A DNA stretch of 64,000 nt from Candidatus Magasanikiibacteriota bacterium (GCA_041665405.1 JBAYIZ010000006.1:407-64406), one strand, 5' to 3'. Shown: positions 36,173-63,031, counted from the stretch's first letter. Notes: generated from the sequence alone by a model not told the origin. Translations and numbers: made by a program.

Positions 36173-36447
36173 AAAGGATGGTGCGGGTTACATTATTTAA
36201 TTAAGTATATATATAAAATAATAATAGTAATAAGGCTGTGGAAAGGGTTAATAAGTCGTTTTTTGTTTTCAAATTAGCCAAGTTTAAGGTGAATAATTTT
36301 TTAACAGTTTGGTATAAAAGTGTGTGTGAAAAACGATTTATTTAAGTTTATTTATTTTCTGTTGATAAGTGGTTGACTTGTTCTTTTTATATTAACAACT
36401 TATTAACATTCTTTGCACACCATTTAGCGAAGAAAAAAAACCATGTT
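36173..36447. other. dnaA-dnaN intergenic region, probable oriC segment with AT-rich unwinding element
   Basis: Very AT-rich tract TATATATATAAAATAATAATAGTAATAA plus a DnaA-box-like TGTTGATAA. Confidence 0.4.
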
Positions 36448-37842
36448 TTAGATATTATTGATATATAAACGCTGTCTTATTAATTCTAGTTCTTGTTTTA
36501 GTTTTAAATCATTATCTATTTCTTTGGTAATTTTTTCGTTGGCATGCATCGCTGTGGTGTGATCGCGTCCGCCCAGCTCATCGCCAATGGAAGGGAAAGA
36601 CATTTTAAGATCATTACGCAAAATATACATAATAATCTGGCGAGGATAAGAGAGCTTCTTTTCTCGGCTTTTACCACAAACATTTTCGGTGGAAACATTG
36701 AAAAAGGTGCAAACAGTCTCTATGGTCTGTTGTGATGTGACTGAACGTCTAGCCGAAGCAGAATCAAAACTAGAAAGAATTGATTTTACTGATTCGGCTG
36801 TCGGGGCCATATTTTTTAATTGATGATAAGCAATAATTTTATTTAGGGCGCCTTCAAGCTCACGAATGTTGCTCTGAACAATAGTAGCAACTGTATTTAG
36901 GGTTTTGTCGTCCAAAACAAAATTCTTTTCTTGGCACTTTTTGCCCAAAATAGCGACACGTGTTTCAAAATCAGGGGCAGAAACATCCACAATCATTCCC
37001 CACTCGAAGCGAGATTTGAGGCGATCCTCAAGGGCAGGGATGGCTTTTGGTGGGCGGTCAGAAGTTAAAATTACCTGCTTGTTTGCCTGGTGGAGCTCGT
37101 TAAAAGTATGAAAAAACGATTCTTGGCTGGCATCTTTGCCAGCGATGAACTGAATATCATCAATTAACAAAGCGTCGATAGTACGATAGCGGTTTTGGAA
37201 GTCTCTCGCTCCACCACTACGCAAAGAAGTAATAAAATCGTTGGTAAATTTCTCAGCACTAACATACAAGATATTGGTTTGAGGGTTTTTTTTCAACAAT
37301 TCATTGCCAACCGCCTGTAAAAGATGGGTTTTCCCCAAACCTACACCACCGTAGATAAACAGTGGATTGTAGGCCTCACCAGGACGGTCTGCCACTGCCT
37401 TGGCGGCGGTGAAAGCCAATTCGGAGCCTTTGCCAACCACAAAACTATCAAAATTGTATTTTGGGTTAATGGTAAATCCATGAGAAGCGACAGATTGGTG
37501 ACTAGTTTGTTGAGAGTATGAAGGTGTTTTTTCGTTTTCATGAGATACCGACGGGGAAGGAGGGGTGTTTATTGGTTGTTCCACAACATTTTTGATATTT
37601 TCGATCTTGTATTCCATCCTTCTAATAGGAAGGGCGGTGACCCTCTCTAAAGATTGGATGATTTGGTGGTGGTGTTTTTTTTCAATCCACGCCTGATTAA
37701 AGGTGTTTGGGACGCAGACAATAACATGGCCTTCTTGAAAACTAACAATACCAGTATTTTTGAACCAGGTGTTAAAATTCGCTTTGGAAATGGTTAATTC
37801 TAATTCAGATAAAACAGCCTGCCAAATTTCATTATTAGTCAT
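36448..37842 (-). CDS. dnaA: chromosomal replication initiator DnaA
   Basis: Walker A GGVGLGKTHLL and the C-terminal DNA-binding domain. Confidence 0.95.
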   Translation of the reverse strand: MTNNEIWQAVLSELELTISKANFNTWFKNTGIVSFQEGHVIVCVPNTFNQAWIEKKHHHQIIQSLERVTALPIRRMEYKIENIKNVVEQPINTPPSPSVSHENEKTPSYSQQTSHQSVASHGFTINPKYNFDSFVVGKGSELAFTAAKAVADRPGEAYNPLFIYGGVGLGKTHLLQAVGNELLKKNPQTNILYVSAEKFTNDFITSLRSGGARDFQNRYRTIDALLIDDIQFIAGKDASQESFFHTFNELHQANKQVILTSDRPPKAIPALEDRLKSRFEWGMIVDVSAPDFETRVAILGKKCQEKNFVLDDKTLNTVATIVQSNIRELEGALNKIIAYHQLKNMAPTAESVKSILSSFDSASARRSVTSQQTIETVCTFFNVSTENVCGKSREKKLSYPRQIIMYILRNDLKMSFPSIGDELGGRDHTTAMHANEKITKEIDNDLKLKQELELIRQRLYINNI

Positions 37843-40394: not shown

Positions 40395-40841
40395 ATGGAA
40401 GACACCTGCAAAGTGTGTGGTGGAAGGCATAAAACCGGCGAGTGTACCGAAAAATCGTCCAAAAAAGAAGGAAACAAAAAACGCGAACTATTTAAAGACG
40501 CCATCTGCAAAAAAATAGAAGAAAAGCTTGCCAAAATAAACTTTGGAAGTTATGATGCCGCCGAAAATTATGGTGGTGGTGATAGCGTAGACCTGTACGA
40601 TGAAGCCGACAACATAGAAGAGGTGTTAGACGAAGCAGAAGAGACTATTGATTTAGCATACAAAGAAGACTGGTCAACAGACAAGCTAATAGCAGAATTA
40701 AACAAAATAATAGTAAAGATAGACACCGAGCCCCAGGAAAAACACCTTAGCTTTGTTTCATATGGTATGGAAGAAAAACCGCTTTCGTATTATGTAGACA
40801 TAAGTGAAGAAGTGGAAAGTCACTACGGGAAACGCGGCTAG
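40395..40841 (+). CDS. small acidic protein with N-terminal CCHC-type zinc-knuckle-like motif, hypothetical
   Basis: CKVCGGRHKTGEC (C-x2-C-x3-H-x4-C) followed by a highly acidic low-complexity body. Confidence 0.45.
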   Translation: MEDTCKVCGGRHKTGECTEKSSKKEGNKKRELFKDAICKKIEEKLAKINFGSYDAAENYGGGDSVDLYDEADNIEEVLDEAEETIDLAYKEDWSTDKLIAELNKIIVKIDTEPQEKHLSFVSYGMEEKPLSYYVDISEEVESHYGKRG

Positions 40842-40845
40842 TTTT

Positions 40846-42840
40846 ATGAATCTTTTTTCAGGAATTAAAATTTTAGATCTCACGCGCGTTTTTAGCGGGC
40901 CTTTTGCGACCAGGCATTTTTCTGATTTTGGGGCAGAGGTGATCAAGATAGAGCCATCACAAGGAGATGACAGCCGAAAATTTCCGCCACACATTGGCAA
41001 TTGGAGCGGATATTTTGAGATTTTAAATAGGAACAAAAAATCTATTATATTGGATTTAAAAAACGACAAAGACTTGGAGAAGTTTTATAAGCTTTGCAAA
41101 AACTGCGATGTAGTGGTTGAAAATTTTTCGCCCGATGTTGCCAAAAGATTGAAAATCGATTATCAAACAATCGCAAAAATAAACTCGAACGTTATTTACG
41201 CCTCTATTTCTGGTGTCAGCGAAAATATTGTAAAAAAATATTATGATGTTATCGCGCAGGCTGAGTCTGGGTTGATATCGCTCAACGGAGAATGTGAGGA
41301 CATGAAAAATGCAACATCAGTCGTAGATGCATTTTCTGGCATGAAGTTGGCCTTTGCCATTTCATCGGCCTTGTATGGTAGAGAAAAAACAAAAAGAGGC
41401 TGTAAAATTAATGTTTCTATGAAAGGGACGGCTTTTGATCTGCTCGAACAAAACCTCATCAACACTTCAGTAACAAATATAAATCCAAAAAAAGTAGGAA
41501 ATATGGATAGTGCCATTGCACCATTTGGCGTGTTCAAAACAAAGAACGGGGCGGTAGTGGTTGCGATCGGGAACAATGATCAATGGGAAAGATTTGAAGC
41601 ATTTTTGTTAAAGCACGGACCCAAAAGAATTTTTAAACACTTTGCAACAAATATTCTTAGACTTAAAAATATTCAAAATTTAAAAACAGAAATAGAGCAG
41701 GTATTTTCTCTATATTTATCAAAAAATATAATAAAAATACTTGAAGAAAAAAATATACCATGCGGACAAGTAAAAACCATGCGCGACGTAATTAATGATG
41801 AGGAAAACTACGAGGAAAATTTGTTGGAAAAAATAAAGCACCCTATAGTGGGAGATATTGTGGTTCCAACTGGAGGTATATTTTTCTCAAAATTTAAAAA
41901 AGAAAAATATCGAATAGCCCCAGCTCTAAACATGGAATATAAGGAATATAAACAGGAACACACGAGCCAAGTGGTTGAATTACTTAACAAGTGTTTTCCT
42001 AATAAAAAAGTTACTGAAAAATCTTTCTTGTGGAAACACTTTGATAAATTTTTTAATAATAAATCAGTCGGCATAGTCGCACTCGAAGAGGGTGTGGTAT
42101 GTGCGTTTGTGTGTTTTACTCCAATTGCTATTGTAAATGGAGAAAATATTTATAATCATTTTTATTCTTGCGCGATTCAAGCCACTCACCCAGATTTCAG
42201 GCGCCAGGGGATTGTTTCCAAACTTACATTGATGGTTGAAGACAAACTTGGCCCCGCCGTTGAATATATAGGATTTTCCAATAGCGAAGGGGTTAAAATC
42301 GATAAATTTTCAAAAAAAATTAACTACGAAATTTTAGGACAAATGGCCACTAAATATGTTGTTTCGTTGCCATATTTTTCAAATTTTCATATAAAACAAA
42401 TAGACGAAATTAATTTCCAACCGAAATCTCAACACAACACAAGTGGGTTTCTTATATTGAAGAATAATGAATACTTAAAATGGAGATACAAAAATAACCC
42501 CAAAAATATATACGAATATTTTGAAATATCTAAAGAAGACGTTGTCGCCGGTTATATTATTTGTAAAAACAGCAAGTTGAAATACGAAGTTAACGAAGTG
42601 GCATTGTTTGAAAACAAAGAAAAGACATACAAAGAGGCTATTAAAGCATTTTCAAAATTTTCAATTAACAGGGGAAAGTTTTTTGTTTCTTATTCATATT
42701 TACAAAATAAATTTTGGAAGCAATGTTTTCCATTACTATCGTTTACAAAAAAAATCAACATTTATTTCACTATAAAGACCGCGGACACCAACCTAGAAGA
42801 TGTTGATAAGTGGAGAATTCAAGGCGGAGATGTCCAATAA
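40846..42840 (+). CDS. family III CoA-transferase (CaiB/BaiF-like) fused to a C-terminal GNAT-like acyltransferase domain
   Basis: N-terminus IKILDLTRVFSGPFATRHFSDFGAEVIKIEP is the canonical family III start. The C-terminal 300 aa carry a GNAT-like core (...SCAIQATHPDFRRQGIVSKL...). The start was moved to ATG 40846. Confidence 0.7.
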   Translation: MNLFSGIKILDLTRVFSGPFATRHFSDFGAEVIKIEPSQGDDSRKFPPHIGNWSGYFEILNRNKKSIILDLKNDKDLEKFYKLCKNCDVVVENFSPDVAKRLKIDYQTIAKINSNVIYASISGVSENIVKKYYDVIAQAESGLISLNGECEDMKNATSVVDAFSGMKLAFAISSALYGREKTKRGCKINVSMKGTAFDLLEQNLINTSVTNINPKKVGNMDSAIAPFGVFKTKNGAVVVAIGNNDQWERFEAFLLKHGPKRIFKHFATNILRLKNIQNLKTEIEQVFSLYLSKNIIKILEEKNIPCGQVKTMRDVINDEENYEENLLEKIKHPIVGDIVVPTGGIFFSKFKKEKYRIAPALNMEYKEYKQEHTSQVVELLNKCFPNKKVTEKSFLWKHFDKFFNNKSVGIVALEEGVVCAFVCFTPIAIVNGENIYNHFYSCAIQATHPDFRRQGIVSKLTLMVEDKLGPAVEYIGFSNSEGVKIDKFSKKINYEILGQMATKYVVSLPYFSNFHIKQIDEINFQPKSQHNTSGFLILKNNEYLKWRYKNNPKNIYEYFEISKEDVVAGYIICKNSKLKYEVNEVALFENKEKTYKEAIKAFSKFSINRGKFFVSYSYLQNKFWKQCFPLLSFTKKINIYFTIKTADTNLEDVDKWRIQGGDVQ

Positions 42841-48241: not shown

Positions 48242-48313
48242 GGTACCGTTGCCAAGCAGTAAGGCAGAGCTCTGCAAAAGCTCTATGCGTGGGTGCAATT
48301 CCCACCGGTACCT
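48242..48313 (+). tRNA. tRNA-Cys (anticodon GCA), discriminator U73, atypical T-loop (UGCAAUU); CCA not encoded
   Basis: Acceptor GGTACCG/CGGTACC, anticodon stem GAGCT/AGCTC with loop CTGCAAA, T-stem GTGGG/CCCAC. U73 is the Cys identity element. Confidence 0.65.
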
Positions 48314-48341
48314 CGAAATAGCAGTAGTGCTGTAGAACAAA

Positions 48342-48453: not shown

Positions 48454-48482
48454 TTGACTTTGTGTTTTTTATCAAGTAAAAT
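48454..48482 (+). promoter_or_regulatory. promoter TTGACT-17-TAAAAT reading into GC island 4
   Basis: AT-rich host-type promoter; the GC-rich leader begins directly after the -10. Confidence 0.45.
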
Positions 48483-48576
48483 ATTTTTGTGTCCCAAACG
48501 ACCGACGGTTCGCCGTTCGGTCACAACGACCACTTGCACCGCTCATCGGTGGTGGTCTCGAAAAGGAGAGAGAGCC

Positions 48577-48798
48577 ATGCGTGTGCTTCCCTCGATCCTG
48601 AACCAGAGCCGGAGACGGAGCGACAATTCCGCCGATTGCGGGCAGGTCGCGAGCTCCGAGGCCGACTTCATCCACAGGCAACTGCTCGAGCATGGCTTCT
48701 GCTCGGACATGAAGGAGGGCGCCGTCGGCACCGCCAACATGGTCGGCATCGTCTGTTCGACCGCGGCCGGCCGCGGAGCAGTAGTCCTCCTGGTGTAG
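48577..48798 (+). CDS. small GC-rich protein (73 aa), hypothetical; GC island 4
   Basis: Strong SD AAAGGAGAGAG-5-ATG. About 65% GC with high GC3. Sequence MRVLPSILNQSRRRSDNSADCGQVASSEADFIHRQLLEHGFCSDMKEGAVGTANMVGIVCSTAAGRGAVVLLV. The longer overlapping track ORFs are GC artefacts. Confidence 0.5.
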   Translation: MRVLPSILNQSRRRSDNSADCGQVASSEADFIHRQLLEHGFCSDMKEGAVGTANMVGIVCSTAAGRGAVVLLV

Positions 48799-48827
48799 GG
48801 CTCAGCTTCGTACGAGACAACCAGTGC

Positions 48828-48881
48828 GGCCGGACCGGGAGCTCCTTCGGGGGTTTCTGGTCCGGCCGTCGTTTCCTTTTT
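48828..48881 (+). terminator. GC-rich intrinsic terminator of island 4 (GGCCGGACC...GGTCCGGCC + T-run)
   Basis: 9-bp GC stem enclosing a second hairpin, followed by TTTCCTTTTTATT. Confidence 0.6.
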
Positions 48882-51683: not shown

Positions 51684-53282
51684 TTATTTTTTTATACTTC
51701 TCAACATTATTCTTTTAAAATCTTGCGCAATTTCATAACGCAAGCCTTTTCTATTTAAGTTAACCTTGTTTCTAAGAGTTTCTAAGTATGTTTTATGTTC
51801 TGAACTTGTTAAGTATTCTCGCATGATTTCATCCCTTAATTTTGCCCAATCCTCAGAGTTTTTAAGCCATTGTTTTTCTAGAGGGACACCTAATGTTTTG
51901 TACATTTTTGCTGGATCCATTACGCTATGCATAGTATCATGTTTTCTAAAAAGTTTTGGATTCTCTCGGGCGTTTTTTTCTTTTTCAAACATGTTACTAT
52001 ACATACCAAAATCGATAGTTCCAACGATAGGTGTCCAAATATTTATACGGTAGTTGGTTTGAGGATTTTTTTTCATAAATGTAAGCATGGTCTTCTTTAT
52101 TTCATCTTTTGTATATCGAAAATGTTCGGGTAACCCTAAGATTAGCAAGGTTCTCACCATGAGAAATTTTTTTGCAGAATTAATAAACTCTGTAGCCACT
52201 TCAAGACTATCGCCTTTTGCTAAATCTTTTCTATTGCCGATAACATCTTCTACACCAACGGCAATTTCAATACAGCCAGCTTCAGCCATTTCTTTAAATT
52301 TTCTTAAACCCTCAAACTGCTTGACGCTCATAAAAGCAACCCACCCCATCTTATTTTTATGTTGCTGATTGAAGTGTTTCATAAAATTTATAAAATCTTC
52401 AAAGTGTTTCGGGTTGGCATTTAGTAAGGCATCACGTACAAAAACAAAATCCTTACCTTGTTTATAAAGTTTTTTTATTTCATTTTTGGCTGTGTCAAGA
52501 CAAGACACATATCCACCATAAAAAGAATCACTAGTGCAGAAAGTGCATTTATGAATACATCCGGCGCTAGTAGCTGTCGAACCGGCATTTTTGAAGTGTT
52601 TGTCTAATTCTAAAAAAGGCATTTTATTTATTTGAGAGCCATCGGTAGAAGCCGCTACAGGTATCAATATCTCAAGAGCATTGTTTTCTGTTAGCCGAGG
52701 AAAATTTTTACCAGTTTTTTTAGTGTTTTCAACAATACATAAATTTGTGTTTGTATCCTTTGTTGTATACGCAATTGAGCCTATTTTTTTCAAAGGAACC
52801 CCTAACGATAGAGCCAACATTGGCAATTCTCCTTGTCCGGTACAACAAATATCTATCCCAGTAATTTCTGGGTGTTGTAAAATCCATTTATAATCAAGCG
52901 CAAAATGTTCAGCCCCTCCGATTACTGTTTTTTGAGGATACTTGTTTTTTATTTTACGACACAACTCAAAGGATTCATTTATACTAGTAGACTGACTACT
53001 AATGCCAATAATTTCGGATTGTTGAATAAGATTTTCCATTGCGGACGTTTTTTGGTCTTGAAGATATGCTATGTCCACCGATATGCCAAATTTTTTTAAG
53101 TATCCAGCTATTCTTTTGATGCCGAGATTTTCTAATCTTAAATGATATTCGTCGGCTTCATATTTGGATTCGGTTATGTTGCCGTCAATAAGTAGAACCC
53201 TTTTTCTGGGTAGTTTTTTGTTGAAAGCCATTTTTTGCAGAGCATTCAATGAAATAATTTGTGTTGTTGTCGAAGTTTCCAT
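51684..53282 (-). CDS. B12-binding-domain radical SAM protein
   Basis: N-terminal Rossmann-like B12-binding-type region. Radical SAM cluster motif CIHKCTFC (Cx3Cx2C); 532 aa. Confidence 0.7.
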   Translation of the reverse strand: METSTTTQIISLNALQKMAFNKKLPRKRVLLIDGNITESKYEADEYHLRLENLGIKRIAGYLKKFGISVDIAYLQDQKTSAMENLIQQSEIIGISSQSTSINESFELCRKIKNKYPQKTVIGGAEHFALDYKWILQHPEITGIDICCTGQGELPMLALSLGVPLKKIGSIAYTTKDTNTNLCIVENTKKTGKNFPRLTENNALEILIPVAASTDGSQINKMPFLELDKHFKNAGSTATSAGCIHKCTFCTSDSFYGGYVSCLDTAKNEIKKLYKQGKDFVFVRDALLNANPKHFEDFINFMKHFNQQHKNKMGWVAFMSVKQFEGLRKFKEMAEAGCIEIAVGVEDVIGNRKDLAKGDSLEVATEFINSAKKFLMVRTLLILGLPEHFRYTKDEIKKTMLTFMKKNPQTNYRINIWTPIVGTIDFGMYSNMFEKEKNARENPKLFRKHDTMHSVMDPAKMYKTLGVPLEKQWLKNSEDWAKLRDEIMREYLTSSEHKTYLETLRNKVNLNRKGLRYEIAQDFKRIMLRSIKK

Positions 53283-53288
53283 AGTATT

Positions 53289-53978
53289 TTATTTTTTACA
53301 CACAATCAAAGCGGTGTTGGTGCGCAAGAATTTGAGTTCGACTTTGAATCCGACATTCTTTAACCATTTAATCTGATCTTCAATTGGAGCAAGATCGTTT
53401 AAGAACATGTGGTGGTATGCCCACTCGGTCAAAGTTTTTTTGTCTGTCGCATTTTCCACCAAGTGATGAAAGTGCAAAGCGTTATTAAGCGCGGCGGTAT
53501 GTTTGTCTTGGTAAGTCACCAAATCTCCAAAAATAAATACGCCGCCTGATTTAAGCAAAGAATATATTTTTTTGAATAATTTCTTTTTACCGGCTGTGTT
53601 TTGGTGATGAATGCCGATTACTGAAACTATTAAATCATATTTAATATCAAATTTAATTTTGGAGTAATCACCATAAACATATTTTACATTTTTGCCAAGT
53701 TTTTTCTTGGCACTGTTTATCATTTGTCTGGAGAAATCCACCACCGTTAGTTTGCTATTTGGTAGAACATCTTTTATTAATTTGCTAGTAAGACCAGTAC
53801 CAACTCCAAGATCCAACATTTTAATATTTTTGTTCACAAAAGCTTTTTTTGCGTAATTCAAAATATTATAATGAATTTCTAAGTGGTGCGGAATGGAATT
53901 TACAATATCTCGGTCATATTTGTTTAATGAATAATGGTCGTAATTCAACTGAGACGGTTTTACATTGGTTGTTTTCAT
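53289..53978 (-). CDS. class I SAM-dependent methyltransferase
   Basis: Motif I LDLGVGTGLTS; post-I acidic residue; 229 aa. Confidence 0.8.
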   Translation of the reverse strand: MKTTNVKPSQLNYDHYSLNKYDRDIVNSIPHHLEIHYNILNYAKKAFVNKNIKMLDLGVGTGLTSKLIKDVLPNSKLTVVDFSRQMINSAKKKLGKNVKYVYGDYSKIKFDIKYDLIVSVIGIHHQNTAGKKKLFKKIYSLLKSGGVFIFGDLVTYQDKHTAALNNALHFHHLVENATDKKTLTEWAYHHMFLNDLAPIEDQIKWLKNVGFKVELKFLRTNTALIVCKK

Positions 53979-53980
53979 AT

Positions 53981-55336
53981 TTATGAGGTTATTTTATTTA
54001 TAGCGACGATCAACCGTTCGATATCATTGTTTGTATTGCATAGAGCGATAGAGGCGCGAATTAGGGCTGGAATGGTTTTGACGTTGCCATGTTTAACTGA
54101 ATCGACAATGGCATTATCGTTCTTTATTCCTAAAAGTTTTCGTATTACGTGATAGGTACAGAAACTTCCCGCTCTTACACCGATTCCGTATTCGCTATTA
54201 AGTCTTTCGGCCACTTCGTTGGAATCCATATTTTTTATACGAAACGGTATAACGGTTCCTAATTTTTCTTTTTTAACAAACATTTCTACGTTGGGGTTTT
54301 TCTTTAGTGCATCAAACAGTTTGTTTGTTAAAGTTGATTCATACTGACAAATTTTATCTATGCCAATTTTTTTGAGTTGCTCAAGTGCAATAGCCATGGT
54401 AACCGCACCGATAGCATTAGGCGTGCCTGGATCGTGTGCGAGTTGATTTCTGTATCGCAAGAACTCGCCAGTTTTTGTTATGTAAGGAAGATTACCGCCA
54501 CCAATTTGATAAGGTAAAAAAGAATCAAGAAAGTTTTTTGGTCCGATTAAGAAACCTCCGCCATATGGGGCGTAAAACTTATGACCAGAAGCGGCCAAAA
54601 AATCTATTCCCATTTCTTTCATATCCAATTTGTGATGTTGTAAAAATTGGCAGGCGTCAACCAGAAAATATGCGCCATATCGGTGAGCAAGCATTCCAAT
54701 TTTTTTAATATCAGGACAATATCCCGTAACATTTGAAGAAGCAGTAAGAACTAATACTTTGATATGATTTTTTTTGAGTAAATTTTCTATTATGTCTAAA
54801 TCAAATTCAAAATTTTCATTAACATCATATTGTAATACTTGGCGACGTCCTAAGTATTGAATTTGTTCGTTGACGCTATCCATTTCTCCAAAAGTATTTT
54901 GTTGTCCACCCAAAGCTTTGATACCTTCAGATTTTATCCAAGGCAACCAAGATGAACTATGCTCAATAGACGACACAGCGATTTTTCCTTTTAGGAAAGA
55001 AAAAAAGTGGGCGGCTGTATTGATTGCCCCAGTAGTATTATTGGTAAACAAAACATATGAATCAGACGGAGCATTAACAAAGGATTTGATTATCTCGCGA
55101 CTGTTTTCATATACATCGGTGGAGATTTTTGATTTTTTCCCCGCGCCACGATGTACCGATCCGTAGCTAGTTATGTATTTTGATAGTCCGCGTTCGACTG
55201 TTTTAAGGGGAGGAGTGGTGGCAGCATTGTCCAAGTTCACATAATCAACTTTTCCTAAAATTGAGGTTGTGACTGCGTATTTTAGGATTTTGGTTGAAAA
55301 CAGTTTGGTAGGGTCAATTTGGCTTGGTTTGTTCAT
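53981..55336 (-). CDS. class V aminotransferase / cysteine desulfurase-family PLP enzyme
   Basis: YVNLDNAATTPP N-terminus, NTTGAINTAA, PLP-lysine motif ASGHKFYAPYGGG. Confidence 0.8.
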   Translation of the reverse strand: MNKPSQIDPTKLFSTKILKYAVTTSILGKVDYVNLDNAATTPPLKTVERGLSKYITSYGSVHRGAGKKSKISTDVYENSREIIKSFVNAPSDSYVLFTNNTTGAINTAAHFFSFLKGKIAVSSIEHSSSWLPWIKSEGIKALGGQQNTFGEMDSVNEQIQYLGRRQVLQYDVNENFEFDLDIIENLLKKNHIKVLVLTASSNVTGYCPDIKKIGMLAHRYGAYFLVDACQFLQHHKLDMKEMGIDFLAASGHKFYAPYGGGFLIGPKNFLDSFLPYQIGGGNLPYITKTGEFLRYRNQLAHDPGTPNAIGAVTMAIALEQLKKIGIDKICQYESTLTNKLFDALKKNPNVEMFVKKEKLGTVIPFRIKNMDSNEVAERLNSEYGIGVRAGSFCTYHVIRKLLGIKNDNAIVDSVKHGNVKTIPALIRASIALCNTNNDIERLIVAINKITS

Positions 55337-55485
55337 ATATGCTATTTGTTATTAAATAACGCGTTATAATAGCATTTTTTACACATTCCGTCAATCATTT
55401 GGGACACACAAACTTGACAAAAGATAGTAAATAAGCTAAAATACAGAATATATTATTCCGTGTCGTAAATTATTGACAACTAAAT

Positions 55486-56220
55486 ATGGAAAATTTGAAT
55501 ATTCTAAAAGAACTCGGTTTAGACGACCAAGAAGCGAGTGTATATATGGCTTTATTAAAATTGGGTGGATCTCAAGCCAGTGTTGTAGCCAAAGATGTTG
55601 GCATTAAACGGACAACAGTTTACCCTGTTTTGCAGGCGTTGGCGGCCAAAGGGATGGTAAATGTTTATTTTCGAAAAAACCGCCATTTCTATTATGCTCA
55701 AAAACCAAATAGAGTGGTGGGTATTTTCAAAAAGAAAATAGAATCATTTGAAAGTATTATTCCAATGTTGGAACTAGTTGAAAAAAAACAAGTGATGGCC
55801 ACGGGTTTGCGCTTTATTGAAACAGTTGAAGAATTAAAACAATTTTATAACGGAATTTTAGATGAGTATAAAGGGAAGCAATATCTGGCAATTGGAAATA
55901 CGGCGGCATGGGAGGGATTGGAACCAGAATTTTTTGTAAACTTTCGTAGACAAAGAGCAGAAAATAAAATTAAAACGAAATTACTATTAACATTTAATTC
56001 TGTCGAAATAAATCCAATAGAAACCTCGCTATTAAGAGAGTGGAAATATCTTCCTGAAAAATATAAATTTCAAAGTACGATAGATATTTTTAATGATAAA
56101 ATTTTGATTGTGAGTCCGGAGCTAAGTTCGTTGGCGGTGGTGATCGCGGTGCCGGCGATGACGGATATTTTTAAATCTGTTTTTGAGATGTTGTGGCAGA
56201 TGTTGCCGGAGGTGAAATAA
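55486..56220 (+). CDS. TrmB-like winged-helix transcriptional regulator (short paralog, 244 aa)
   Basis: N-terminal LKELGLDDQEASVYMALLKLGGSQASVVAKDVGIKRTTVYPVLQALAAKGMV matches the TrmB wHTH. Divergent from the aminotransferase operon. Confidence 0.7.
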   Translation: MENLNILKELGLDDQEASVYMALLKLGGSQASVVAKDVGIKRTTVYPVLQALAAKGMVNVYFRKNRHFYYAQKPNRVVGIFKKKIESFESIIPMLELVEKKQVMATGLRFIETVEELKQFYNGILDEYKGKQYLAIGNTAAWEGLEPEFFVNFRRQRAENKIKTKLLLTFNSVEINPIETSLLREWKYLPEKYKFQSTIDIFNDKILIVSPELSSLAVVIAVPAMTDIFKSVFEMLWQMLPEVK

Positions 56221-56226
56221 TTAAAA

Positions 56227-56260
56227 CAAAAAACCGATTGCAATATGCAGTCGGTTTTTT
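56227..56260 (+). terminator. conserved intrinsic terminator AAAAAACCGATTGCAATATGCAGTCGGTTTTTTT (family shared by TrmB paralogs)
   Basis: 8-bp stem with a G-U pair plus T-run. Near-identical copies at 61128-61162 and 63041-63076. Confidence 0.65.
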
Positions 56261-56269
56261 TAGTTTATT

Positions 56270-57910
56270 TTACTCAATAAAAAGATTTTCCGTAGAATAA
56301 TTATTTTTTATTAATTTATCATTTATTAAAACTTTTATAATTTCATCAACCACTGAATTAAAATCATCTGGAATTGTATCAAAGAATTCTATCTTTTTTA
56401 ATGATTCGGTTAATTCGCGCTCAGGTATCCCAACATGAGATGAGGCAATATTTATTACCTCTTTTTCTTGTTTTTTCCATATCGCGACGGATTGATTCCA
56501 CACCTTCTTAATTTTTTCAATCTCTTTGGTTTTTTGTTGTAGTAATTTATTGTTTACAATCAATACATCATATAGGATAGGATAATCGTTTGTGGTTTTT
56601 AAAATATTTATATTTGAAAGTTCAAGCGCTTTTTCAAGCCATGGCTCCCAAATAATTCCAGCTTCAATATTACCCGCGATAATTCCAGCTCCAATTTCAG
56701 AGCATTGCATATCTTTAATTTTTACATCTTTAGAGGTCATCCCTTCTTTTTGGAGAATATATGAGAGAAAAAATTCCGCCACCGATCCTTTTTCGAGTCC
56801 TATGGTTTTACCTTTTAATTCAATTACGGATTTTATATTTGACTGTGCAACTAACGCATCGCCACCGACGGAGCGATTCAATACCTTTACTATTCTAAGA
56901 TCTGTTATTTTTGAGTGTAATTCGATGGCTTTATCTAGGGTAACATTTATTGCGTCTAGCTTTCCTTGCTCCCACAGCTCAACTTTTTTCTTGTTATCTT
57001 CAAAATTGATTTGTTCCACATCAAGCGACTCGTCGATAAACAGACCGCTATCTTTTGCATAGTAAAGGGGGGTGTTTCCAGACCAAATATATAATCCCAT
57101 TTTGAAAACATCAGTATCAGTAACAATCCCTTCTTCCAAGCTCGCCTTGATTGATTCTGAACGAATAATGTAACTGATGAACTTTTTTAGTTTTATAAAA
57201 TCTTCATGGAATCTGATTTCAGGTTTTCGTGGTCGTTTGATATTTACTTTTACTACCTGTTTGACAGTTCCTGGATTTAGTCCTAAGACAATAATTCTAT
57301 CCGCTAAGTATATTGCTTCATCAATGTCATGGGTGACTAAAATCATTGTTTTTTGTTCTTCTTCCCATAGTCTTGCTAAAAATTCTTGCATTTGAGATCT
57401 CGTTTGTACATCAAGAGCGCCAAAAGGTTCGTCAAATGCAATTAGGTCAGTCTGTTGTGCTATTGCTCTGGCAATAGCGATTCTTTGTTGCATGCCTCCT
57501 GAAAGCTTGTTGGGGAAATAATCTTTGACCTTGTAAAGGCCAACTCGTTTAAGTAATTTGTTAGTTTCAGTACGTACTTCAGTCTCAGACATATTTTTAC
57601 CGTAAAATCCAATGGCAATATTTTCGAAAACATTCAACCAAGGAAAATTAGAGTATTGCTGAGAAACTAATGCAATTCTATTATTTTCTAAATATTTGGA
57701 GCTGTCTAAACCATTGATTTTTATATTTCCTTCGAATACAGTGTCCAAACCTGTTACGCATTTTAAAATAGTGCTTTTACCTGAGCCGCTTGGGCCAACT
57801 ATACACACTATCTCCCCCTTTTTTATATCAAAAGAGATATCATTTATTGCGATAAAAGATTTATTTTCGCGATCATAATAATGTTTAGTTAGTTTGTGGA
57901 CTTCAATCAT
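56270..57910 (-). CDS. ABC transporter ATPase (NitT/TauT family) fused to a C-terminal NMT1/THI5-like domain
   Basis: Walker A GPSGSGKST, signature LSGGMQQR, Walker B IAFDEP. An extra 300-aa C-terminal periplasmic-binding-like domain. Start set to ATG 57910, 5 nt after the permease stop. Confidence 0.8.
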   Translation of the reverse strand: MIEVHKLTKHYYDRENKSFIAINDISFDIKKGEIVCIVGPSGSGKSTILKCVTGLDTVFEGNIKINGLDSSKYLENNRIALVSQQYSNFPWLNVFENIAIGFYGKNMSETEVRTETNKLLKRVGLYKVKDYFPNKLSGGMQQRIAIARAIAQQTDLIAFDEPFGALDVQTRSQMQEFLARLWEEEQKTMILVTHDIDEAIYLADRIIVLGLNPGTVKQVVKVNIKRPRKPEIRFHEDFIKLKKFISYIIRSESIKASLEEGIVTDTDVFKMGLYIWSGNTPLYYAKDSGLFIDESLDVEQINFEDNKKKVELWEQGKLDAINVTLDKAIELHSKITDLRIVKVLNRSVGGDALVAQSNIKSVIELKGKTIGLEKGSVAEFFLSYILQKEGMTSKDVKIKDMQCSEIGAGIIAGNIEAGIIWEPWLEKALELSNINILKTTNDYPILYDVLIVNNKLLQQKTKEIEKIKKVWNQSVAIWKKQEKEVINIASSHVGIPERELTESLKKIEFFDTIPDDFNSVVDEIIKVLINDKLIKNNYSTENLFIE

Positions 57911-57914
57911 AATT

Positions 57915-58664
57915 TTAAATTTTGTATTTGAAGATGTGTGGGTATAGTTTTTTGAAAATATAATCTGAGAAAAAACCAATTATTCCAATGACAACGATTC
58001 CGACATATAAATCCGGTATATTAGAAAACCTTTGTGCTTCCTTGATCATGTGACCAATACCAGAATTTGCGGCAACCAACTCTGCAATTACGAGATAAGT
58101 CCAACACCACCCCAATGTTATTCGGGAATTATTAAATAATTGCGGAGCGATACTCGATAGTTTTATCTTTAGCACTTTATATTTACTAAAATTTAAGGTA
58201 TGAGATAAATCTAGATATTCTTTAGGAACATTATTTAAATCATCTATTACTAATAAGATAAGTTGAAAAAAAGTGCCAATGAATAAAAGTGATATTTTAG
58301 CACCTTCTCCTATACCAAAAAATAAAATTGTTAATGGGATTAAGGCTGGCACGGGTAAATATCTAATAAAGTCTATATATGGCGAAAGTAAATCGTGTAG
58401 TTTTTTCCACGAACTCATCAATAGCGCGAGCGAAAGAGCAATAACAAAAGCTAACAAGAACGCTACTAAAACTCGAAAAATAGAAATACCAATATCTAAC
58501 ACAAAGGATTTTTCTAAAAACAATTTTTGTGTCGCTGTTAAAAAATCCTGTATTGTCGGAAAGAATATGGGGTTTATAAGTTTAATCCATGAACCCAAAA
58601 TCCACAGTGATAATAAAATCACTATGGAAATTGGGAAGATATAATTTCCTCTAAACAGTTTCAT
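57915..58664 (-). CDS. ABC transporter permease (BPD inner-membrane component)
   Basis: Six TM helices, EAA-like loop; 249 aa. Confidence 0.8.
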   Translation of the reverse strand: MKLFRGNYIFPISIVILLSLWILGSWIKLINPIFFPTIQDFLTATQKLFLEKSFVLDIGISIFRVLVAFLLAFVIALSLALLMSSWKKLHDLLSPYIDFIRYLPVPALIPLTILFFGIGEGAKISLLFIGTFFQLILLVIDDLNNVPKEYLDLSHTLNFSKYKVLKIKLSSIAPQLFNNSRITLGWCWTYLVIAELVAANSGIGHMIKEAQRFSNIPDLYVGIVVIGIIGFFSDYIFKKLYPHIFKYKI

Positions 58665-58676
58665 GGAGATATTAAT

Positions 58677-59678
58677 TTACTTATAACTTGTAATTGTCTT
58701 GTCTGATAATTTATCGCTTGATTTTACCCTTACTCCTGCCGAGTTGTTGCTTTCTAAAATATTACCCACAAGATCAAAAGTTAAATAAGCATTGTTGACT
58801 TGTTTCTTGTCAAACAATTTTTGATTATCTTCTAGCGTCAGCCAACTAACTCCTGATTTGATATCATTCATTTCAGCCTTATCTACACCAAAGGCGTCAG
58901 CCATAATTTGCATTGATTCATCTGGATTCTTTTGCCAATAATCGACAGCTGAAAACCAACCATCCGAAATCTTTTTAAGAACTTCTTGGTCGTTTTTAAC
59001 TAAATTTTCTGAGGCAAATAATAAATCGACAATTAAACCTGGTGTATCTGCACTTGAAACCAATATCTTTGCTCCGGCTCTTTTATCTGCGCTAATAGAT
59101 AAATAAGGTTCATAAGTAGCAGCAACATCTACCTGGCTCGCAACAAATGCATTTCCTGCGTCTGCTGAAGGAAGGTCTTTGAAGCTTACATCTGCCAAGC
59201 TTAATCCTTCTTTATTTAACAAATATTGTAAGATGAAATAAGGAGGAAAACCAGGTTCAGCGGCGACTGTTTTACCTTTTAAGTCTTTCAGTTCTGAAAT
59301 GTTACTAGAAACAACCACGCCATCGCCACCATGTGATTCGTCTATAGCAAGGAATCCAACCCCTGGAGGTTCATTACCTTCTACAGCTTGAAAAATATCA
59401 TACGTTGCAGCGTACATGTCGATCTGTCCGCTGTTCATAGCGGCCCTAAGATCACCGATTGATTCAATTCGAACCAAATTTACATCTACATCATTAAAAA
59501 AATTTTTTTCTTTTGCTAAGTATAGCGGTGCATATCCAGGAAATGTAACCATCCCGATAGTAACTGATTTTTTAGATTGTAGATTTTTTGTGTCATTCTT
59601 GTTACTTTGTGTAAAAACAATTACTAACACAACCACGACGAATAGGGCAACGATTGTCCTGATGATTTTCTTATTCAT
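58677..59678 (-). CDS. ABC transporter substrate-binding protein, NMT1/THI5/SsuA-like
   Basis: Signal/TM anchor MNKKIIRTIVALFVVVVLVIVF followed by a type II PBP fold (GYAPLYLAKEKNFF). Confidence 0.75.
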   Translation of the reverse strand: MNKKIIRTIVALFVVVVLVIVFTQSNKNDTKNLQSKKSVTIGMVTFPGYAPLYLAKEKNFFNDVDVNLVRIESIGDLRAAMNSGQIDMYAATYDIFQAVEGNEPPGVGFLAIDESHGGDGVVVSSNISELKDLKGKTVAAEPGFPPYFILQYLLNKEGLSLADVSFKDLPSADAGNAFVASQVDVAATYEPYLSISADKRAGAKILVSSADTPGLIVDLLFASENLVKNDQEVLKKISDGWFSAVDYWQKNPDESMQIMADAFGVDKAEMNDIKSGVSWLTLEDNQKLFDKKQVNNAYLTFDLVGNILESNNSAGVRVKSSDKLSDKTITSYK

Positions 59679-59789
59679 ACTTTTTATGTTAATTAAGGAA
59701 TTATTTGATTATGTGTTTATTGTAGCATTTTTTTTGGCAGTTGAAAAACAGCGGTAGACGTTAACATTGTTAACAGAACATAATATCAC

Positions 59790-59930
59790 AAAACTAAGGT
59801 TTTGTCAATGGTGTCACTTGACTTATGGTGACACTTATGATATGATAGTATTGCCTCTGTAAAGAGCAAAAACAACACAGTGTGTCACTGGTATGGTGAC
59901 AAATGTGACAAAAACCATGTTATTCTATAA
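59790..59930. promoter_or_regulatory. divergent control region with operator-like inverted repeats GTGTCAC-N10-GTGACAC and GTGTCAC-N7-GTGACA-N3-GTGACA
   Basis: The palindromes lie between the minus-strand ABC operon and the plus-strand TrmB-like gene at 59949. Confidence 0.4.
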
Positions 59931-59948
59931 TTTTTATCCACACCATTT

Positions 59949-61118
59949 ATGCTGATAAAAGACCTCCAATCTATCGGTTTTACCAAGAATCTATCTGAGG
60001 TTTATTTGTCTTTAGCCCAATTGGGAGGCCAGGCCAAAGCTGGGGAAATCATCAAAAAGACAGGTTTACACCGAAATATCGTTTATATTTGTTTAGACAA
60101 ACTAATAGAAAAGCAATTATTAACTAAAACCGAAGAACGCGGTGTTACTATTTATAAAACACTAGATCCAGCCCGACTAATGAATGAAATTCGAGAAAAA
60201 GAACAATTAACAACAAATATTATTGAAGAAATTGAAGCATTAAAAAAGCATCCAGACACTCAAGAAATAATTGTCCACGAAGGTTTGGAAGGTTTTAGAA
60301 ATTTCAATCTCTATACTTTGAAAAAAATCGAAGAAGGTGGCACATTGCAAGTGCTTGGTTCCATTGGAGATAAATGGTTTGAATACATGGGTGAAGAAAA
60401 GTACAAAGAATATATAAAAATACAAAACAAGAAAAAAATTAAGTGGGAGATGATTACTTATTTTGATTCAAAACGCGACAAACAATTTATTAATGACTAT
60501 CCAGAATTATGCGAGGTAAAATTATTACCGCAGACATATGATAATCCGGCCAGCATTTATATTTTTGGAGATACAATTTCAATAAATATTTTTACCGAAC
60601 CATTTTCGGTGATTGAAATAAAAAATCGCGCGGTGGCGGATGTATATAGAAATTATTTTAGTTTGTTGTGGAACCAAGAAGTGTTTACCTATCGCGGTTG
60701 GGATGCGATTGATAAAATTTTGTGTGCGAATTTGGAAGATGGATTTACTTATGATGTTTTTGGGGCAACATATGGTGTGGGTACAAAAGAGGAACAAGAT
60801 CGCGTGTTGGAATTTTTTATGGAGAACCACAGAAAGACCGCACACTTTAAACCAAATAGACGATTGATATTTTTTGAACAAGATCGTGAGCAGGCGGCTA
60901 AAGAAGTTTCTCCGTTGGATGCAGACACTCGTAAAAATGTTCGTTTGCGTTTTCTGTCAGACAAATATTTTTCGCCGATGGAGACACATTTGTTTAAAGA
61001 TAAAGTAATTTTAATTTTTTCTTTTGGCGAACCAATCGCGACAGTTTATACCAATCCAAAAATAATTGAAGTTTACAAAAAACAATTTGAGTTGTGGTGG
61101 GGGATGTCGGTGGAATAA
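59949..61118 (+). CDS. TrmB-like regulator, long paralog (389 aa)
   Basis: N-terminal wHTH IGFTKNLSEVYLSLAQLGGQAKAGEIIKKTGLHRNIVYICLDKLIEKQLL plus a C-terminal effector-like domain. Paralogous to 61919 and 63976. Confidence 0.7.
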   Translation: MLIKDLQSIGFTKNLSEVYLSLAQLGGQAKAGEIIKKTGLHRNIVYICLDKLIEKQLLTKTEERGVTIYKTLDPARLMNEIREKEQLTTNIIEEIEALKKHPDTQEIIVHEGLEGFRNFNLYTLKKIEEGGTLQVLGSIGDKWFEYMGEEKYKEYIKIQNKKKIKWEMITYFDSKRDKQFINDYPELCEVKLLPQTYDNPASIYIFGDTISINIFTEPFSVIEIKNRAVADVYRNYFSLLWNQEVFTYRGWDAIDKILCANLEDGFTYDVFGATYGVGTKEEQDRVLEFFMENHRKTAHFKPNRRLIFFEQDREQAAKEVSPLDADTRKNVRLRFLSDKYFSPMETHLFKDKVILIFSFGEPIATVYTNPKIIEVYKKQFELWWGMSVE

Positions 61119-61918: not shown

Positions 61919-63031
61919 ATGTTAGAACAAAAACTAGAAAAACTTGGTTTTGGAAAAAACGAAGTGAAAGTATATCTAGCTCTTTTTGATTTGGGTAAAT
62001 GTAAAGCCAAACAAATCATTGATAACACAGGTCTTCATCGTAATCTTGTCTACACGGCACTTGATGATTTGATTGGAAAGAAATTAATTTCAAAAGTCGA
62101 GAGTAATGGAATTTTTTTATTTTGGGTTAATAGCCCTGAACTTTTGAACGAAATAATAGAAGAAAAAGCTATAACGGCAAAAGAAGTGATTGAACAATTA
62201 AAAAAGAAAAGCGCCAGTCAACCTCGTGAGATATTAATTTATGAAGGTGAAGAGGGTGTGAAGAAAAGTCGCACCAAAGTTTTAACATATGGAAAAGGAG
62301 ATACATTTTATATGTTAGGAACAAAAGCGAGTTTCTCGCCTTCGATGGAAAAATTTTCAAAGGAGTTTGATTCGCTAAGAATTAAAAAGGGAATTTATTC
62401 AAAAATTTTAGTCGAACATGATGTGAATAAAGATGAACTTAAACATCTTAATAAAATGCCACTTAGTGAAGCCAAGCACCTTCCTCTTGATTTGGAAATG
62501 CCTATTTGGTTTTCAGTTATTCAAGATTATTTGGAAATTGGCATCCCAGGCGTTGATCCACTGATTTTTTCGATAAAAAATAAAGCGGTGGCTGGGGCAA
62601 TAAAAAAATTTATAGATTTTTTCTGGAATCAAGAATCCGAAGTTGTTACAGGCGCAAAGGCTTTACAAGAGATTATGTTGGAATCCATTGATTATGGTGA
62701 GTTGAAAGGTATCGGCGCAAAAGGCAATTTTTTTGAAAATTATCCGGGATTTTTTAATGATATAAAAAAGCGAGCAGTAATGAAACAAGGACTGGTCTGG
62801 AGAAACATTGTTGATCCAAGTATGAAAGGGCATGAGATTACAAAATTTTTGTGGACTAAAACAAAATATAATTTATCCGATACAAAAAATCCCAATGTTG
62901 TTTGGTTGTATGGCCCGAAAGCTGTGATTATAAATTGGGCGGATAAAGAACCTGTGATGTTTGTTTCTACAAATAAGGCGCTAGTGCAAAGTTATAATGA
63001 TTATTTTGAGGAGATGTGGGGTAAAGATTAA
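61919..63031 (+). CDS. TrmB-like regulator, long paralog (370 aa)
   Basis: LGFGKNEVKVYLALFDLGKCKAKQIIDNTGLHRNLVYTALDDLIGKKLI wHTH. Its 5' leader and terminator are duplicated with the next unit. Confidence 0.7.
   Translation: MLEQKLEKLGFGKNEVKVYLALFDLGKCKAKQIIDNTGLHRNLVYTALDDLIGKKLISKVESNGIFLFWVNSPELLNEIIEEKAITAKEVIEQLKKKSASQPREILIYEGEEGVKKSRTKVLTYGKGDTFYMLGTKASFSPSMEKFSKEFDSLRIKKGIYSKILVEHDVNKDELKHLNKMPLSEAKHLPLDLEMPIWFSVIQDYLEIGIPGVDPLIFSIKNKAVAGAIKKFIDFFWNQESEVVTGAKALQEIMLESIDYGELKGIGAKGNFFENYPGFFNDIKKRAVMKQGLVWRNIVDPSMKGHEITKFLWTKTKYNLSDTKNPNVVWLYGPKAVIINWADKEPVMFVSTNKALVQSYNDYFEEMWGKD

Follow-up and report, generated by a model that had tools for sequence, protein, structure and literature searches.

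Cobalamin-type (class B) radical S-adenosylmethionine (SAM) enzymes are known beside several kinds of partner. In the Orf29/Orf30 (Swb7/Swb6) system, a class-B radical SAM enzyme and a pyridoxal 5′-phosphate (PLP) enzyme make methyl-1-aminocyclopropane-1-carboxylate (methyl-ACC) from SAM (PMC7277169), and ThnL is a cobalamin-type radical SAM enzyme that forms a C-S (thioether) bond in thienamycin biosynthesis (PMC13331322). The ArsL-ArsM system of arsinothricin biosynthesis, whose product is amino-acid-like, sets a class I methyltransferase beside a B12-domain-like radical SAM enzyme. Here, a three-gene operon is described (positions 51684-55336) that encodes a cysteine-desulfurase-like PLP enzyme, a SAM-dependent methyltransferase and a radical SAM protein with a B12-binding domain. 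It lies in a 64 kb stretch of DNA, hereafter the window, from a metagenome-assembled genome (MAG) of Candidatus Magasanikbacteria, a groundwater bacterium of the Candidate Phyla Radiation (CPR) with a tiny genome. CPR bacteria are thought to be almost devoid of biosynthetic chemistry.

The locus resembles Orf29/Orf30 in having B12-type radical SAM and PLP genes side by side, which in that system act in sequence on a small molecule. There, however, the PLP enzyme is an ACC-synthase-like aminotransferase, the genes belong to actinomycete nonribosomal peptide synthetase clusters, and neither a separate methyltransferase nor an importer is present. The likeness to ArsL-ArsM is limited by scores far under the family cut-offs, by the lack of an RCCLKC tail, and by a methyltransferase without conserved cysteines. 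Class-B radical SAM pairings with a PLP enzyme or with a methyltransferase are thus already known, whereas the literature searched contains neither the three-way set, together with a TrmB regulator and importers, nor any description of this cassette or of its radical SAM family. The trio most probably serves an accessory small-molecule pathway that is under regulation, as opposed to housekeeping modification. The first-pass annotation had proposed a small-molecule modification cassette linked to import, and this remains the best reading.

A rare radical SAM gene joined to a common pair

The three genes lie on the minus strand and are separated by 2 bp (PLP enzyme to methyltransferase, 53979-53980) and 6 bp (methyltransferase to radical SAM protein, 53283-53288). 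A recount of these gaps and of the open reading frames (ORFs; Table 1) agrees with the layout first annotated, in which a TrmB-like regulator is divergent from the trio and an ATP-binding cassette (ABC) importer adjoins it, and Pfam domain matches agree with the assigned gene identities. No terminator comparable to the hairpin that ends the operon was found inside the trio. An independent assembly of the same organism (L001) carries the same three genes.

The full trio is found at no fewer than 13 independent loci in three phylum-level groups (CPR, an archaeon and Bacteroidota) and in four gene orders; its clustering is therefore far beyond chance. The order PLP enzyme, methyltransferase, radical SAM protein occurs in the window and at L004, L008, L012, L013, L015 and L022. 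At L016 and on an archaeal contig (with Ribosomal_60s, L10, L37ae, Spt5-NGN and IF5A genes) the radical SAM gene stands between the other two, while in Bacteroidota-type loci it comes first and is followed by an ATPase gene and then by the methyltransferase and PLP genes (L002, L007, L023) or by the same two in reverse (L006). Identity between the Bacteroidota proteins and those of the window is ~30-34% for the PLP enzyme and methyltransferase and ~43% for the radical SAM protein, and all three families are kept. These contexts indicate that the three genes are functionally coupled, despite their divergence and reshuffled order, and that horizontal transfer carries the radical SAM gene, with both partners, among CPR, archaea and Bacteroidota.

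The gene-neighbourhood comparison across CPR that the first-pass annotation had proposed shows the core pair to be common and the full trio to occur at scattered loci. By its gene contexts the operon is composite, with a module of TrmB, PLP enzyme and methyltransferase that is widespread in CPR and a radical SAM gene that is a rare add-on. Close CPR homologues of the pair number in the hundreds, with more than 120 PLP-enzyme clusters at ≥63% identity and 384 methyltransferase matches at E ≤1e-20, many of them on shared contigs; the three contexts that were inspected have TrmB divergent from the pair and no radical SAM gene. Orthologues of the TrmB gene next to the trio (300-330 bits) adjoin the module in CPR loci, and the archaeal trio also has a TrmB gene beside it.

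A sister genome, in which the PLP enzyme is 88% identical, shares with the window the order H+-PPase, LysM/M23 peptidase, polA, methyltransferase, PLP enzyme, TrmB. It lacks the radical SAM gene, so that the methyltransferase gene adjoins polA directly, and a single 171-aa gene takes the place of the ABC importer. The comparison therefore yields two differences from the window, namely the radical SAM gene and the importer. In evolution, the operon is thus not a single unit, as the core pair exists without the radical SAM gene.

The companions of the radical SAM gene vary in turn. At L014 and L021 the radical SAM gene is accompanied by the methyltransferase gene but not by a PLP gene; in one branch other class I methyltransferases lie beside the radical SAM gene (L017; convergent in L009), and in one protein (P0021) the radical SAM enzyme is fused to a different class I methyltransferase. 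L005, L019 and L020 have the radical SAM gene with TrmB only. The most constant companion is a methylation partner; the desulfurase is frequent and not obligatory in cis.

These patterns bear on whether the trio might instead have a support role, with the PLP-methyltransferase pair serving CPR housekeeping (Fe-S supply, or RNA or protein modification) and the radical SAM gene, with a chemistry unrelated to the methyltransferase, having landed downstream, where it is co-expressed with its Fe-S sulfur donor. The wide occurrence of the pair without a radical SAM gene would fit this explanation, as would the 88% identity to the PLP enzyme of a genome lacking that gene, which argues against specialisation, and a variant of the PLP enzyme that lies beside unrelated radical SAM-like genes (L025, see below). 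A support role is nevertheless improbable: the trio moves jointly into Bacteroidota and an archaeon with its order reshuffled and its divergent PLP and methyltransferase genes (~30% identity) both kept, L014 and L021 lack the PLP gene and keep the other two together, and a dedicated TrmB regulator would be unusual for housekeeping.

The radical SAM family itself is small. It comprises 35 relatives (E 2e-66 or better) among 5.8 billion clustered proteins, with the next match at E 3e-9. An exhaustive HMMER pass over 1.84 billion representatives at 50% identity returned ~19,000 superfamily matches overall, including eight full-length members at ≥483 bits; the next full-length match scored 180 bits. 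By these searches, the family is sharply bounded, with about eight clusters at 50% identity and without a characterised member. Among one genome per species (185,579 species) there are four loci, in Moranbacteria, Paludibacter, Saccharibacteria and a MAG labelled Gammaproteobacteria, and JGI metagenomes supply eleven. A plasmid, phage or viral origin was considered and rejected: neither 72,556 plasmids nor the viral contigs of IMG/VR yield a match to the radical SAM protein, and the methyltransferase homologues found on plasmids are in unrelated contexts.

None of the 32 family members examined reaches a curated NCBIfam cut-off, the best score of the window protein being 53.5 bits to PhpK (cut-off 600). 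The weak family matches are all to B12 radical SAM families (PhpK, HpnJ, HpnR, BchE, ladderane, ApyD, AprD4, BzaD and ArsL), and the nearest out-group proteins likewise belong to no curated family. A housekeeping tRNA or rRNA methylthiotransferase with conserved synteny across bacteria, the outcome that the first-pass annotation had named as refuting its reading, is not what was found. The MiaB/RimO model (TIGR00089) is touched by one member of the 32 (E 7e-4), a Pfam scan detects neither UPF0004 nor TRAM domains in the window protein, and conserved bacterial synteny is lacking; with these domains missing and only 4 of the 185,579 species genomes positive, MiaB/RimO identity was rejected. The three-domain layout is structurally similar to that of MiaB/RimO, and the net chemistry proposed below (sulfur plus methyl on an unactivated carbon) would be the same, but here sulfur and methyl would each be supplied by a protein of its own, to a free metabolite.

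Further genes were noted at individual trio or radical SAM loci. At L019, a flavoprotein resembling NadB or fumarate reductase (1657-3192; FAD_binding_2 and Succ_DH_flav_C) and a methyltransferase fragment replace the PLP gene upstream of the radical SAM gene; this arrangement may hint at an aspartate-like or C4-dicarboxylate substrate. The Bacteroidota cassettes are followed by a conserved protein of 1,230-1,330 aa (L002 13730-17719, with homologues at L006, L007 and L023) that has no Pfam, NCBIfam or PDB match. Inspection by eye finds GHKL-ATPase-like motifs in it (NMSHNIGSH, ENIIRNTAKHA), and the protein is probably regulatory or conflict-related. Around it are PP2C, kinase, vWA, SymE-like, transposase and type IV secretion system genes, which suggests a mobile or conflict island.

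Predicted activities of the three proteins

The radical SAM protein matches B12-binding PF02310 at 43.4 bits (cut-off 32.1) and Radical_SAM PF04055 at 32.1 bits (cut-off 29.5). Its cluster motif CIHKCTFC (CxxxCxxC) places it in the radical SAM superfamily, and the three cysteines, C242, C246 and C249, are invariant across 32 homologues. The fold was examined by structure prediction, as the first-pass annotation had suggested, in order to place the protein among class B methylases or elsewhere. An alignment-based AlphaFold model (predicted local distance difference test 90.5, predicted template modelling score 0.90) has its best Foldseek matches in TsrM (E 7e-19), CysS and TokK, down to E 3e-13 with TM scores of ~0.5-0.6; after the class B enzymes comes MiaB (7mjy, E 8e-11). 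Like TsrM, CysS and TokK, the model has an N-terminal Rossmann B12-binding domain, a CxxxCxxC partial TIM barrel and a helical C-terminal domain. Identity to these enzymes is only ~13%, however, and here the partners are a desulfurase, a separate methyltransferase and an importer, in a host locus that is not a natural-product cluster.

Domain matches and the model together thus indicate class-B (cobalamin-type) domain content and fold. The best sequence-profile match in the PDB is AprD4 (E 9e-6), which has the same B12-type domain. AprD4 is reported to work without cobalamin. Cobalamin binding by the window protein is a prediction from domain and fold. The family motif S95-x-L97...G122-G123, kept in most members, is reminiscent of cobalamin-binding domains; the window protein has S-S-Q at the SxL position.

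A vicinal cysteine pair distinguishes the family. C146 and C147, invariant (31 and 32 of 32 sequences), lie at the end of strand β-5 of the B12-binding domain, where relatives are hydrophobic (the V-V of DxVVxGEGE). The pair may accept sulfur, bind a metal or cobalt, or act as a redox couple. Auxiliary Fe-S ligation by C146, C147 and C337, for a sulfur insertion like that of MiaB or LipA, was considered and rejected, as C146-C147 occupy hydrophobic strand positions and C337, at the N-terminal end of barrel strand β-4, is off the active-site face.

For the PLP enzyme, the best NCBIfam model is TIGR01979 (SufS), at 246.8 bits and under the cut-off of 475.1. Among solved structures, the 40 nearest relatives (best E 1e-45) are without exception desulfurases for cysteine or lyases for selenocysteine, and the active-site residues align to SufS at ~30% identity to SufS/CsdA. 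Six operon-linked homologues, down to 31% identity, keep H252-K253, which includes the PLP lysine, the RxGxxC motif R388-x-G390-x-x-C393 with the catalytic Cys393, and H126, N202, D227, Q230 and R427, among them the substrate-binding arginines. Because this full catalytic set is invariant and the solved relatives are desulfurases or selenocysteine lyases, persulfide-forming desulfurase chemistry is likely. The enzyme therefore resembles the type II desulfurases SufS and CsdA in all catalytic residues, including the persulfide-forming cysteine; it differs in scoring under the family cut-off and in being partnered by a methyltransferase and TrmB, with no adjacent SufE, SufU, CsdE or SufBCD. No suf genes were found within the window or the related loci inspected. 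The CPR form also has a 35-residue insertion.

A 583-aa variant of the same PLP enzyme, with an unassigned N-terminal extension of 128 aa, was observed in Candidatus Uhrbacteria (L025 6001-9846). Two proteins are encoded after it, one of 425 aa with weak matches to radical SAM families and one of 261 aa that carries the CxxxCxxC sequence CPVGCEYC. Judged from this gene context, the desulfurase family also adjoins other, unrelated radical SAM-like genes.

The methyltransferase profile matches 3dtn (MM_2633 from M. mazei, a structural genomics entry) at E 4e-47, followed by CysG/BelI (9fce, 9fcd) at E 1e-29 to 4e-27 and CmoA at E 3e-18. It is not CmoA by score, reaching 44.7 bits against TIGR00740 (cut-off 193.3) in a full-length alignment. 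CysG and BelI, from the β-lactone pathway, methylate carboxyl oxygens and have a His-His-Asp site that binds Ca2+ and is catalytic; a D191N variant is reported to keep partial activity (PMC11408123). The window protein belongs to the same subfamily as these enzymes and MM_2633 and has the His-His pair in common (H124-H125, invariant), but the third ligand position, Asp191, aligns to an invariant Asn194. The dicarboxylate-binding arginines of CysG are also missing, since Arg22 aligns to an invariant Ile25 and Arg187 lies in an insertion absent from the methyltransferase; the substrate should therefore differ. From this alignment, metal-assisted methyl transfer to a nucleophile unlike that of CysG/BelI is plausible.

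The three proteins together also raise the question of chalcogen or metalloid handling, in which Se, Te or As would be mobilised and methylated, through either a selenocysteine lyase and a methylation step or organoarsenical chemistry like that of ArsL/ArsM. Enzymes of the SufS/CsdB type work well as selenocysteine lyases (1jf9 and 1i29 are among the structural matches of the PLP enzyme). The radical SAM protein has weak matches to ArsL and the CUAEP-tail family and carries the invariant vicinal cysteine pair, and the methyltransferase weakly matches ArsM-type models. These matches, however, score far under the cut-offs and extend over SAM or B12 domains of a generic kind, conserved cysteines are absent from the methyltransferase, unlike ArsM, the window scan found no ars, sel or ter genes nearby, and an importer would be an odd partner for detoxification. 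This explanation is thus very unlikely.

Importers, cobalamin supply and the proposed chemistry

The binding protein of the adjoining importer scores 116.6 bits against TIGR01728, under the cut-off of 163.5, and its best solved relatives are SsuA-type sulfonate binders (E 3e-8). The importer adjoins the trio but is a separate transcription unit; the functional link rests on the sister genome, where the importer and the radical SAM gene are both missing, and on other loci. Four Bacteroidota-type loci have a polar-amino-acid ABC importer whose permease and ATPase genes flank the radical SAM gene, and in a groundwater CPR locus (L015) the cassette and TrmB are inside a Liv-type importer that comprises a LivK-like binding protein and two each of permeases and ATPases. 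A common ligand was sought and rejected, as the predictions are inconsistent (SsuA-like, LAO/cyclohexadienyl-dehydratase lineage, LivK-like); the contexts suggest that some solute is imported.

Two details of these importers were also recorded. The ATPase in the window is an unusual fusion, with an NMT1/binding-protein-like domain at residues ~292-505, and its true start is probably Met24 at 57910, because translation from the listed TTG would create an overlap of 65 nt with the permease gene. The SBP_bac_3 binding protein of a Bacteroidota importer (L002 6821-7672) has its nearest solved relatives in the cyclohexadienyl dehydratase/AncCDT lineage (5jos, 5kkw, 5t0w).

A pathway resembling thiamine-pyrimidine salvage or tailoring, as the first-pass annotation had entertained, or a biotin-like vitamin pathway with a BioC-like methyltransferase and a sulfur-inserting radical enzyme, is barely credible in this light. 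The Pfam name NMT1/THI5 of the importer binding domains would agree with the former, and it is on that name that the thiamine idea was found to rest; the best NCBIfam match of the methyltransferase, BioC at 67 bits, would agree with the latter. Yet the binding protein is nearer to SsuA-type binders, the window contains no Thi or Bio genes, and the BioC score is far under its 185-bit cut-off. The radical SAM protein, moreover, is not ThiC, ThiH or BioB (one member of 32 touches BioB, at E 5e-4), and the importers at other loci are of amino-acid types.

Modification of a peptide or macromolecule was weighed as well, with the radical SAM enzyme methylating or thiolating a precursor peptide, a protein or RNA. 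Many class-B enzymes act on peptides, weak matches to the ApyD and rSAM_ocin_1 models exist, a 29-aa ORF precedes the archaeal trio, and all three operon proteins are basic (isoelectric points 9.2-9.7). There is no space for a precursor gene, however, in the 149 bp between TrmB and the PLP gene or the 45 bp from the operon end to polA. No recognition element, protease or exporter typical of peptides that are made on the ribosome and modified after translation (RiPPs) was found, the partners being importers, and Pfam detects no TRAM or other RNA-binding domain. Such a target therefore merits very little credence.

The apparent need for B12 had been considered surprising in this genome. No cobalamin uptake or salvage genes were found among the ~40 ORFs scanned in the 64 kb window, as the surprise would have it; however, B12-linked genes stand beside the same module in a related Magasanikbacteria contig. 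There (RIFOXYC2, L024 1-13359), a PduO-type cobalamin adenosyltransferase gene lies directly beside the TrmB gene of a TrmB/PLP/methyltransferase module, and a class II B12-dependent ribonucleotide reductase is encoded a few kb away. Because this contig has both genes, use of scavenged cobalamin is, on this gene content, normal in the lineage. The same contig also carries a diversity-generating retroelement (RVT_1 and bAvd).

As to the chemistry, a tentative model, held at rather less than even confidence, joins cysteine-derived sulfur, methyl transfer from SAM and C-H activation by a radical enzyme, all directed at an imported metabolite. The PLP enzyme would take sulfur off cysteine as an enzyme persulfide, and the methyltransferase, through its His-His(-Asn) metal site, would add a methyl group to this sulfur or to an intermediate that carries sulfur or a carboxylate. 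The radical SAM enzyme would form a 5′-deoxyadenosyl radical, with which it takes hydrogen off an unactivated carbon in the imported metabolite, an amino-acid-like or organosulfur compound, and would then make a C-S bond, as ThnL does, or a C-CH3 bond. The net outcome would be methylthiolation, or thiolation plus methylation, of a free metabolite. ThnL offers a precedent for a B12-type radical SAM enzyme that makes a C-S bond instead of methylating (PMC13331322); its thiol, however, is pantetheine and not desulfurase-derived sulfur, and the two are likened by chemistry, not by sequence relationship. A stricter version is a split methylthiotransferase, in which the desulfurase feeds the methyltransferase, the latter yields a methyl-sulfur donor, and the radical SAM enzyme couples this to an unactivated carbon. 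C146-C147 would perhaps be used in the coupling, and the substrate would come from the adjacent importer. This version is unlikely.

Several points weigh against the sulfur-plus-methyl model and the import-linked cassette of which it is part. A cobalamin-dependent methylase methylates alone, so that sulfur and a second methyltransferase are not chemically required. An auxiliary-cluster cysteine triad of the MiaB/RimO/LipA/BioB kind is not evident in the radical SAM protein. The PLP-methyltransferase pair occurs without a radical SAM gene in most CPR, and no PLP gene is adjacent at six radical SAM loci (L005, L009, L014, L017, L019, L020); L011 also lacks one, but its contig is short. In addition, the window importer has its own TrmB-like regulator, promoter-like site and terminator-like hairpin, and the three importers belong to different families whose predicted ligands differ.

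Plain class-B C-methylation is an alternative held at only slightly lower confidence than the sulfur-plus-methyl model. The radical SAM protein would here use cobalamin to methylate a carbon of an imported, amino-acid-like compound, with no radical sulfur insertion. The methyltransferase would then methylate a carboxylate or heteroatom of the same compound, in the manner of CysG, BelI or BioC, and the PLP enzyme would process the compound or a cysteine-derived part of it. The fold is nearest to the methylases TsrM, CysS and TokK, the weak family matches are all to B12 radical SAM families, many of them methylases, and the nearest characterised relatives of the methyltransferase are carboxyl O-methyltransferases; Orf29/Orf30, moreover, show that a class-B radical SAM enzyme can be paired with a PLP enzyme (PMC7277169). 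Against this, the PLP enzyme has a complete persulfide-forming site and not that of an aminotransferase or a lyase only, the CysG dicarboxylate residues Arg22 and Arg187 are missing, and the family is equally far from the non-methylating AprD4, HpnJ and BchE.

Surroundings and significance of the operon

The coordinates of the operon, its control elements and the adjoining genes are given in Table 1. The inverted repeat in front of the PLP gene is a candidate TrmB operator or leader hairpin.

Table 1. The trio, its putative control elements and adjoining genes in the window
Feature	Coordinates	Strand	Details
PLP enzyme, SufS/CsdA-type (type II) cysteine-desulfurase-like	53981-55336	-	451 aa; PF00266 Aminotran_5, 256 bits
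Class I SAM methyltransferase, MM_2633/CysG/BelI/CmoA-like clade	53289-53978	-	229 aa; by profile against PDB
Radical SAM enzyme with B12-binding domain, orphan	51684-53282	-	532 aa; PF02310 and PF04055
Promoter-like site of trio	55394-55366	-	TTGACG-17-TATTAT, TG extension; sigma-70-like consensus match only
Perfect inverted repeat, 8 nt (ATGCTATT / AATAGCAT)	55339-55375		Arms 21 nt apart; overlaps -10 region and leader
Terminator-like hairpin and T-run ending trio	51669-51651	-	Common to convergent polA
TrmB-family regulator, divergent from trio	55486-56220	+	244 aa; PF01978, 60.9 bits
Promoter-like site of this TrmB gene	55414-55442	+	TTGACA-17-TAAAAT
Bidirectional terminator-like hairpin, TrmB/ABC operon boundary	56228-56260
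ABC ATPase with C-terminal NMT1/binding-protein-like domain	56270-57979	-	Listed start TTG
ABC permease, TauC/SsuC/SaoP-like	57915-58664	-
Substrate-binding protein, NitT/TauT (SsuA/NMT1) family	58677-59678	-	TIGR01728
Promoter-like site of ABC operon	59780-59808	-	TTGACA-17-TATTAT, TG extension
Second TrmB-family regulator, divergent from ABC operon	59949-61118	+

Within 8 kb there are three TrmB-family genes, the third at 61919-63031, and two of them diverge from the trio and importer operons; in this lineage, TrmB regulators appear to serve general purposes. Elsewhere the window looks like ordinary CPR content, including dnaA/dnaN, type IV pilus genes, a penicillin-binding protein, tRNA-guanine transglycosylase and elongation factor G. 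Base composition was considered as a sign of recent transfer and is not decisive: GC is 31-37% in the operon and importer and 38% in the window as a whole, and other genes overlap this range.

Three features elsewhere in the window were noted. Between tRNA-Cys (48242-48314) and polA lies an island of ~400 nt (48480-48880) with 60-66% GC in a 38% GC genome. Its plus strand folds well (z = -4.2), with a strong terminal hairpin and U-run, and contains a 73-aa ORF (MRVLPSILNQ...) after a AAGGAGAG Shine-Dalgarno sequence; no Rfam, Pfam or phage match was found for it. The island is probably an insertion beside the tRNA gene, because the sister genome has just 276 bp from the M23 peptidase gene to polA. 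At 35048-37842, dnaN adjoins dnaA, and this adjacency makes the region a probable chromosomal origin. A family III CoA-transferase fused to a GNAT acetyltransferase domain (40804-42840, 678 aa) has an uncommon architecture.

As predicted from its genes, then, one regulated CPR operon would unite persulfide formation by a PLP enzyme, SAM-dependent methyl transfer and B12-type radical SAM catalysis, and the joint transfer of the radical SAM gene with the same two partners marks a self-contained function. If sulfur is involved, the known reaction range of cobalamin-type radical SAM enzymes would be extended. Should the split methylthiotransferase prove true, it would represent a new B12-type radical SAM reaction class and a rare case of real biosynthesis in CPR, in DPANN-like archaea and on Bacteroidota mobile elements. 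The commoner CPR module of TrmB, SufS-like enzyme and His-His methyltransferase may, in addition, bear on sulfur handling in CPR.

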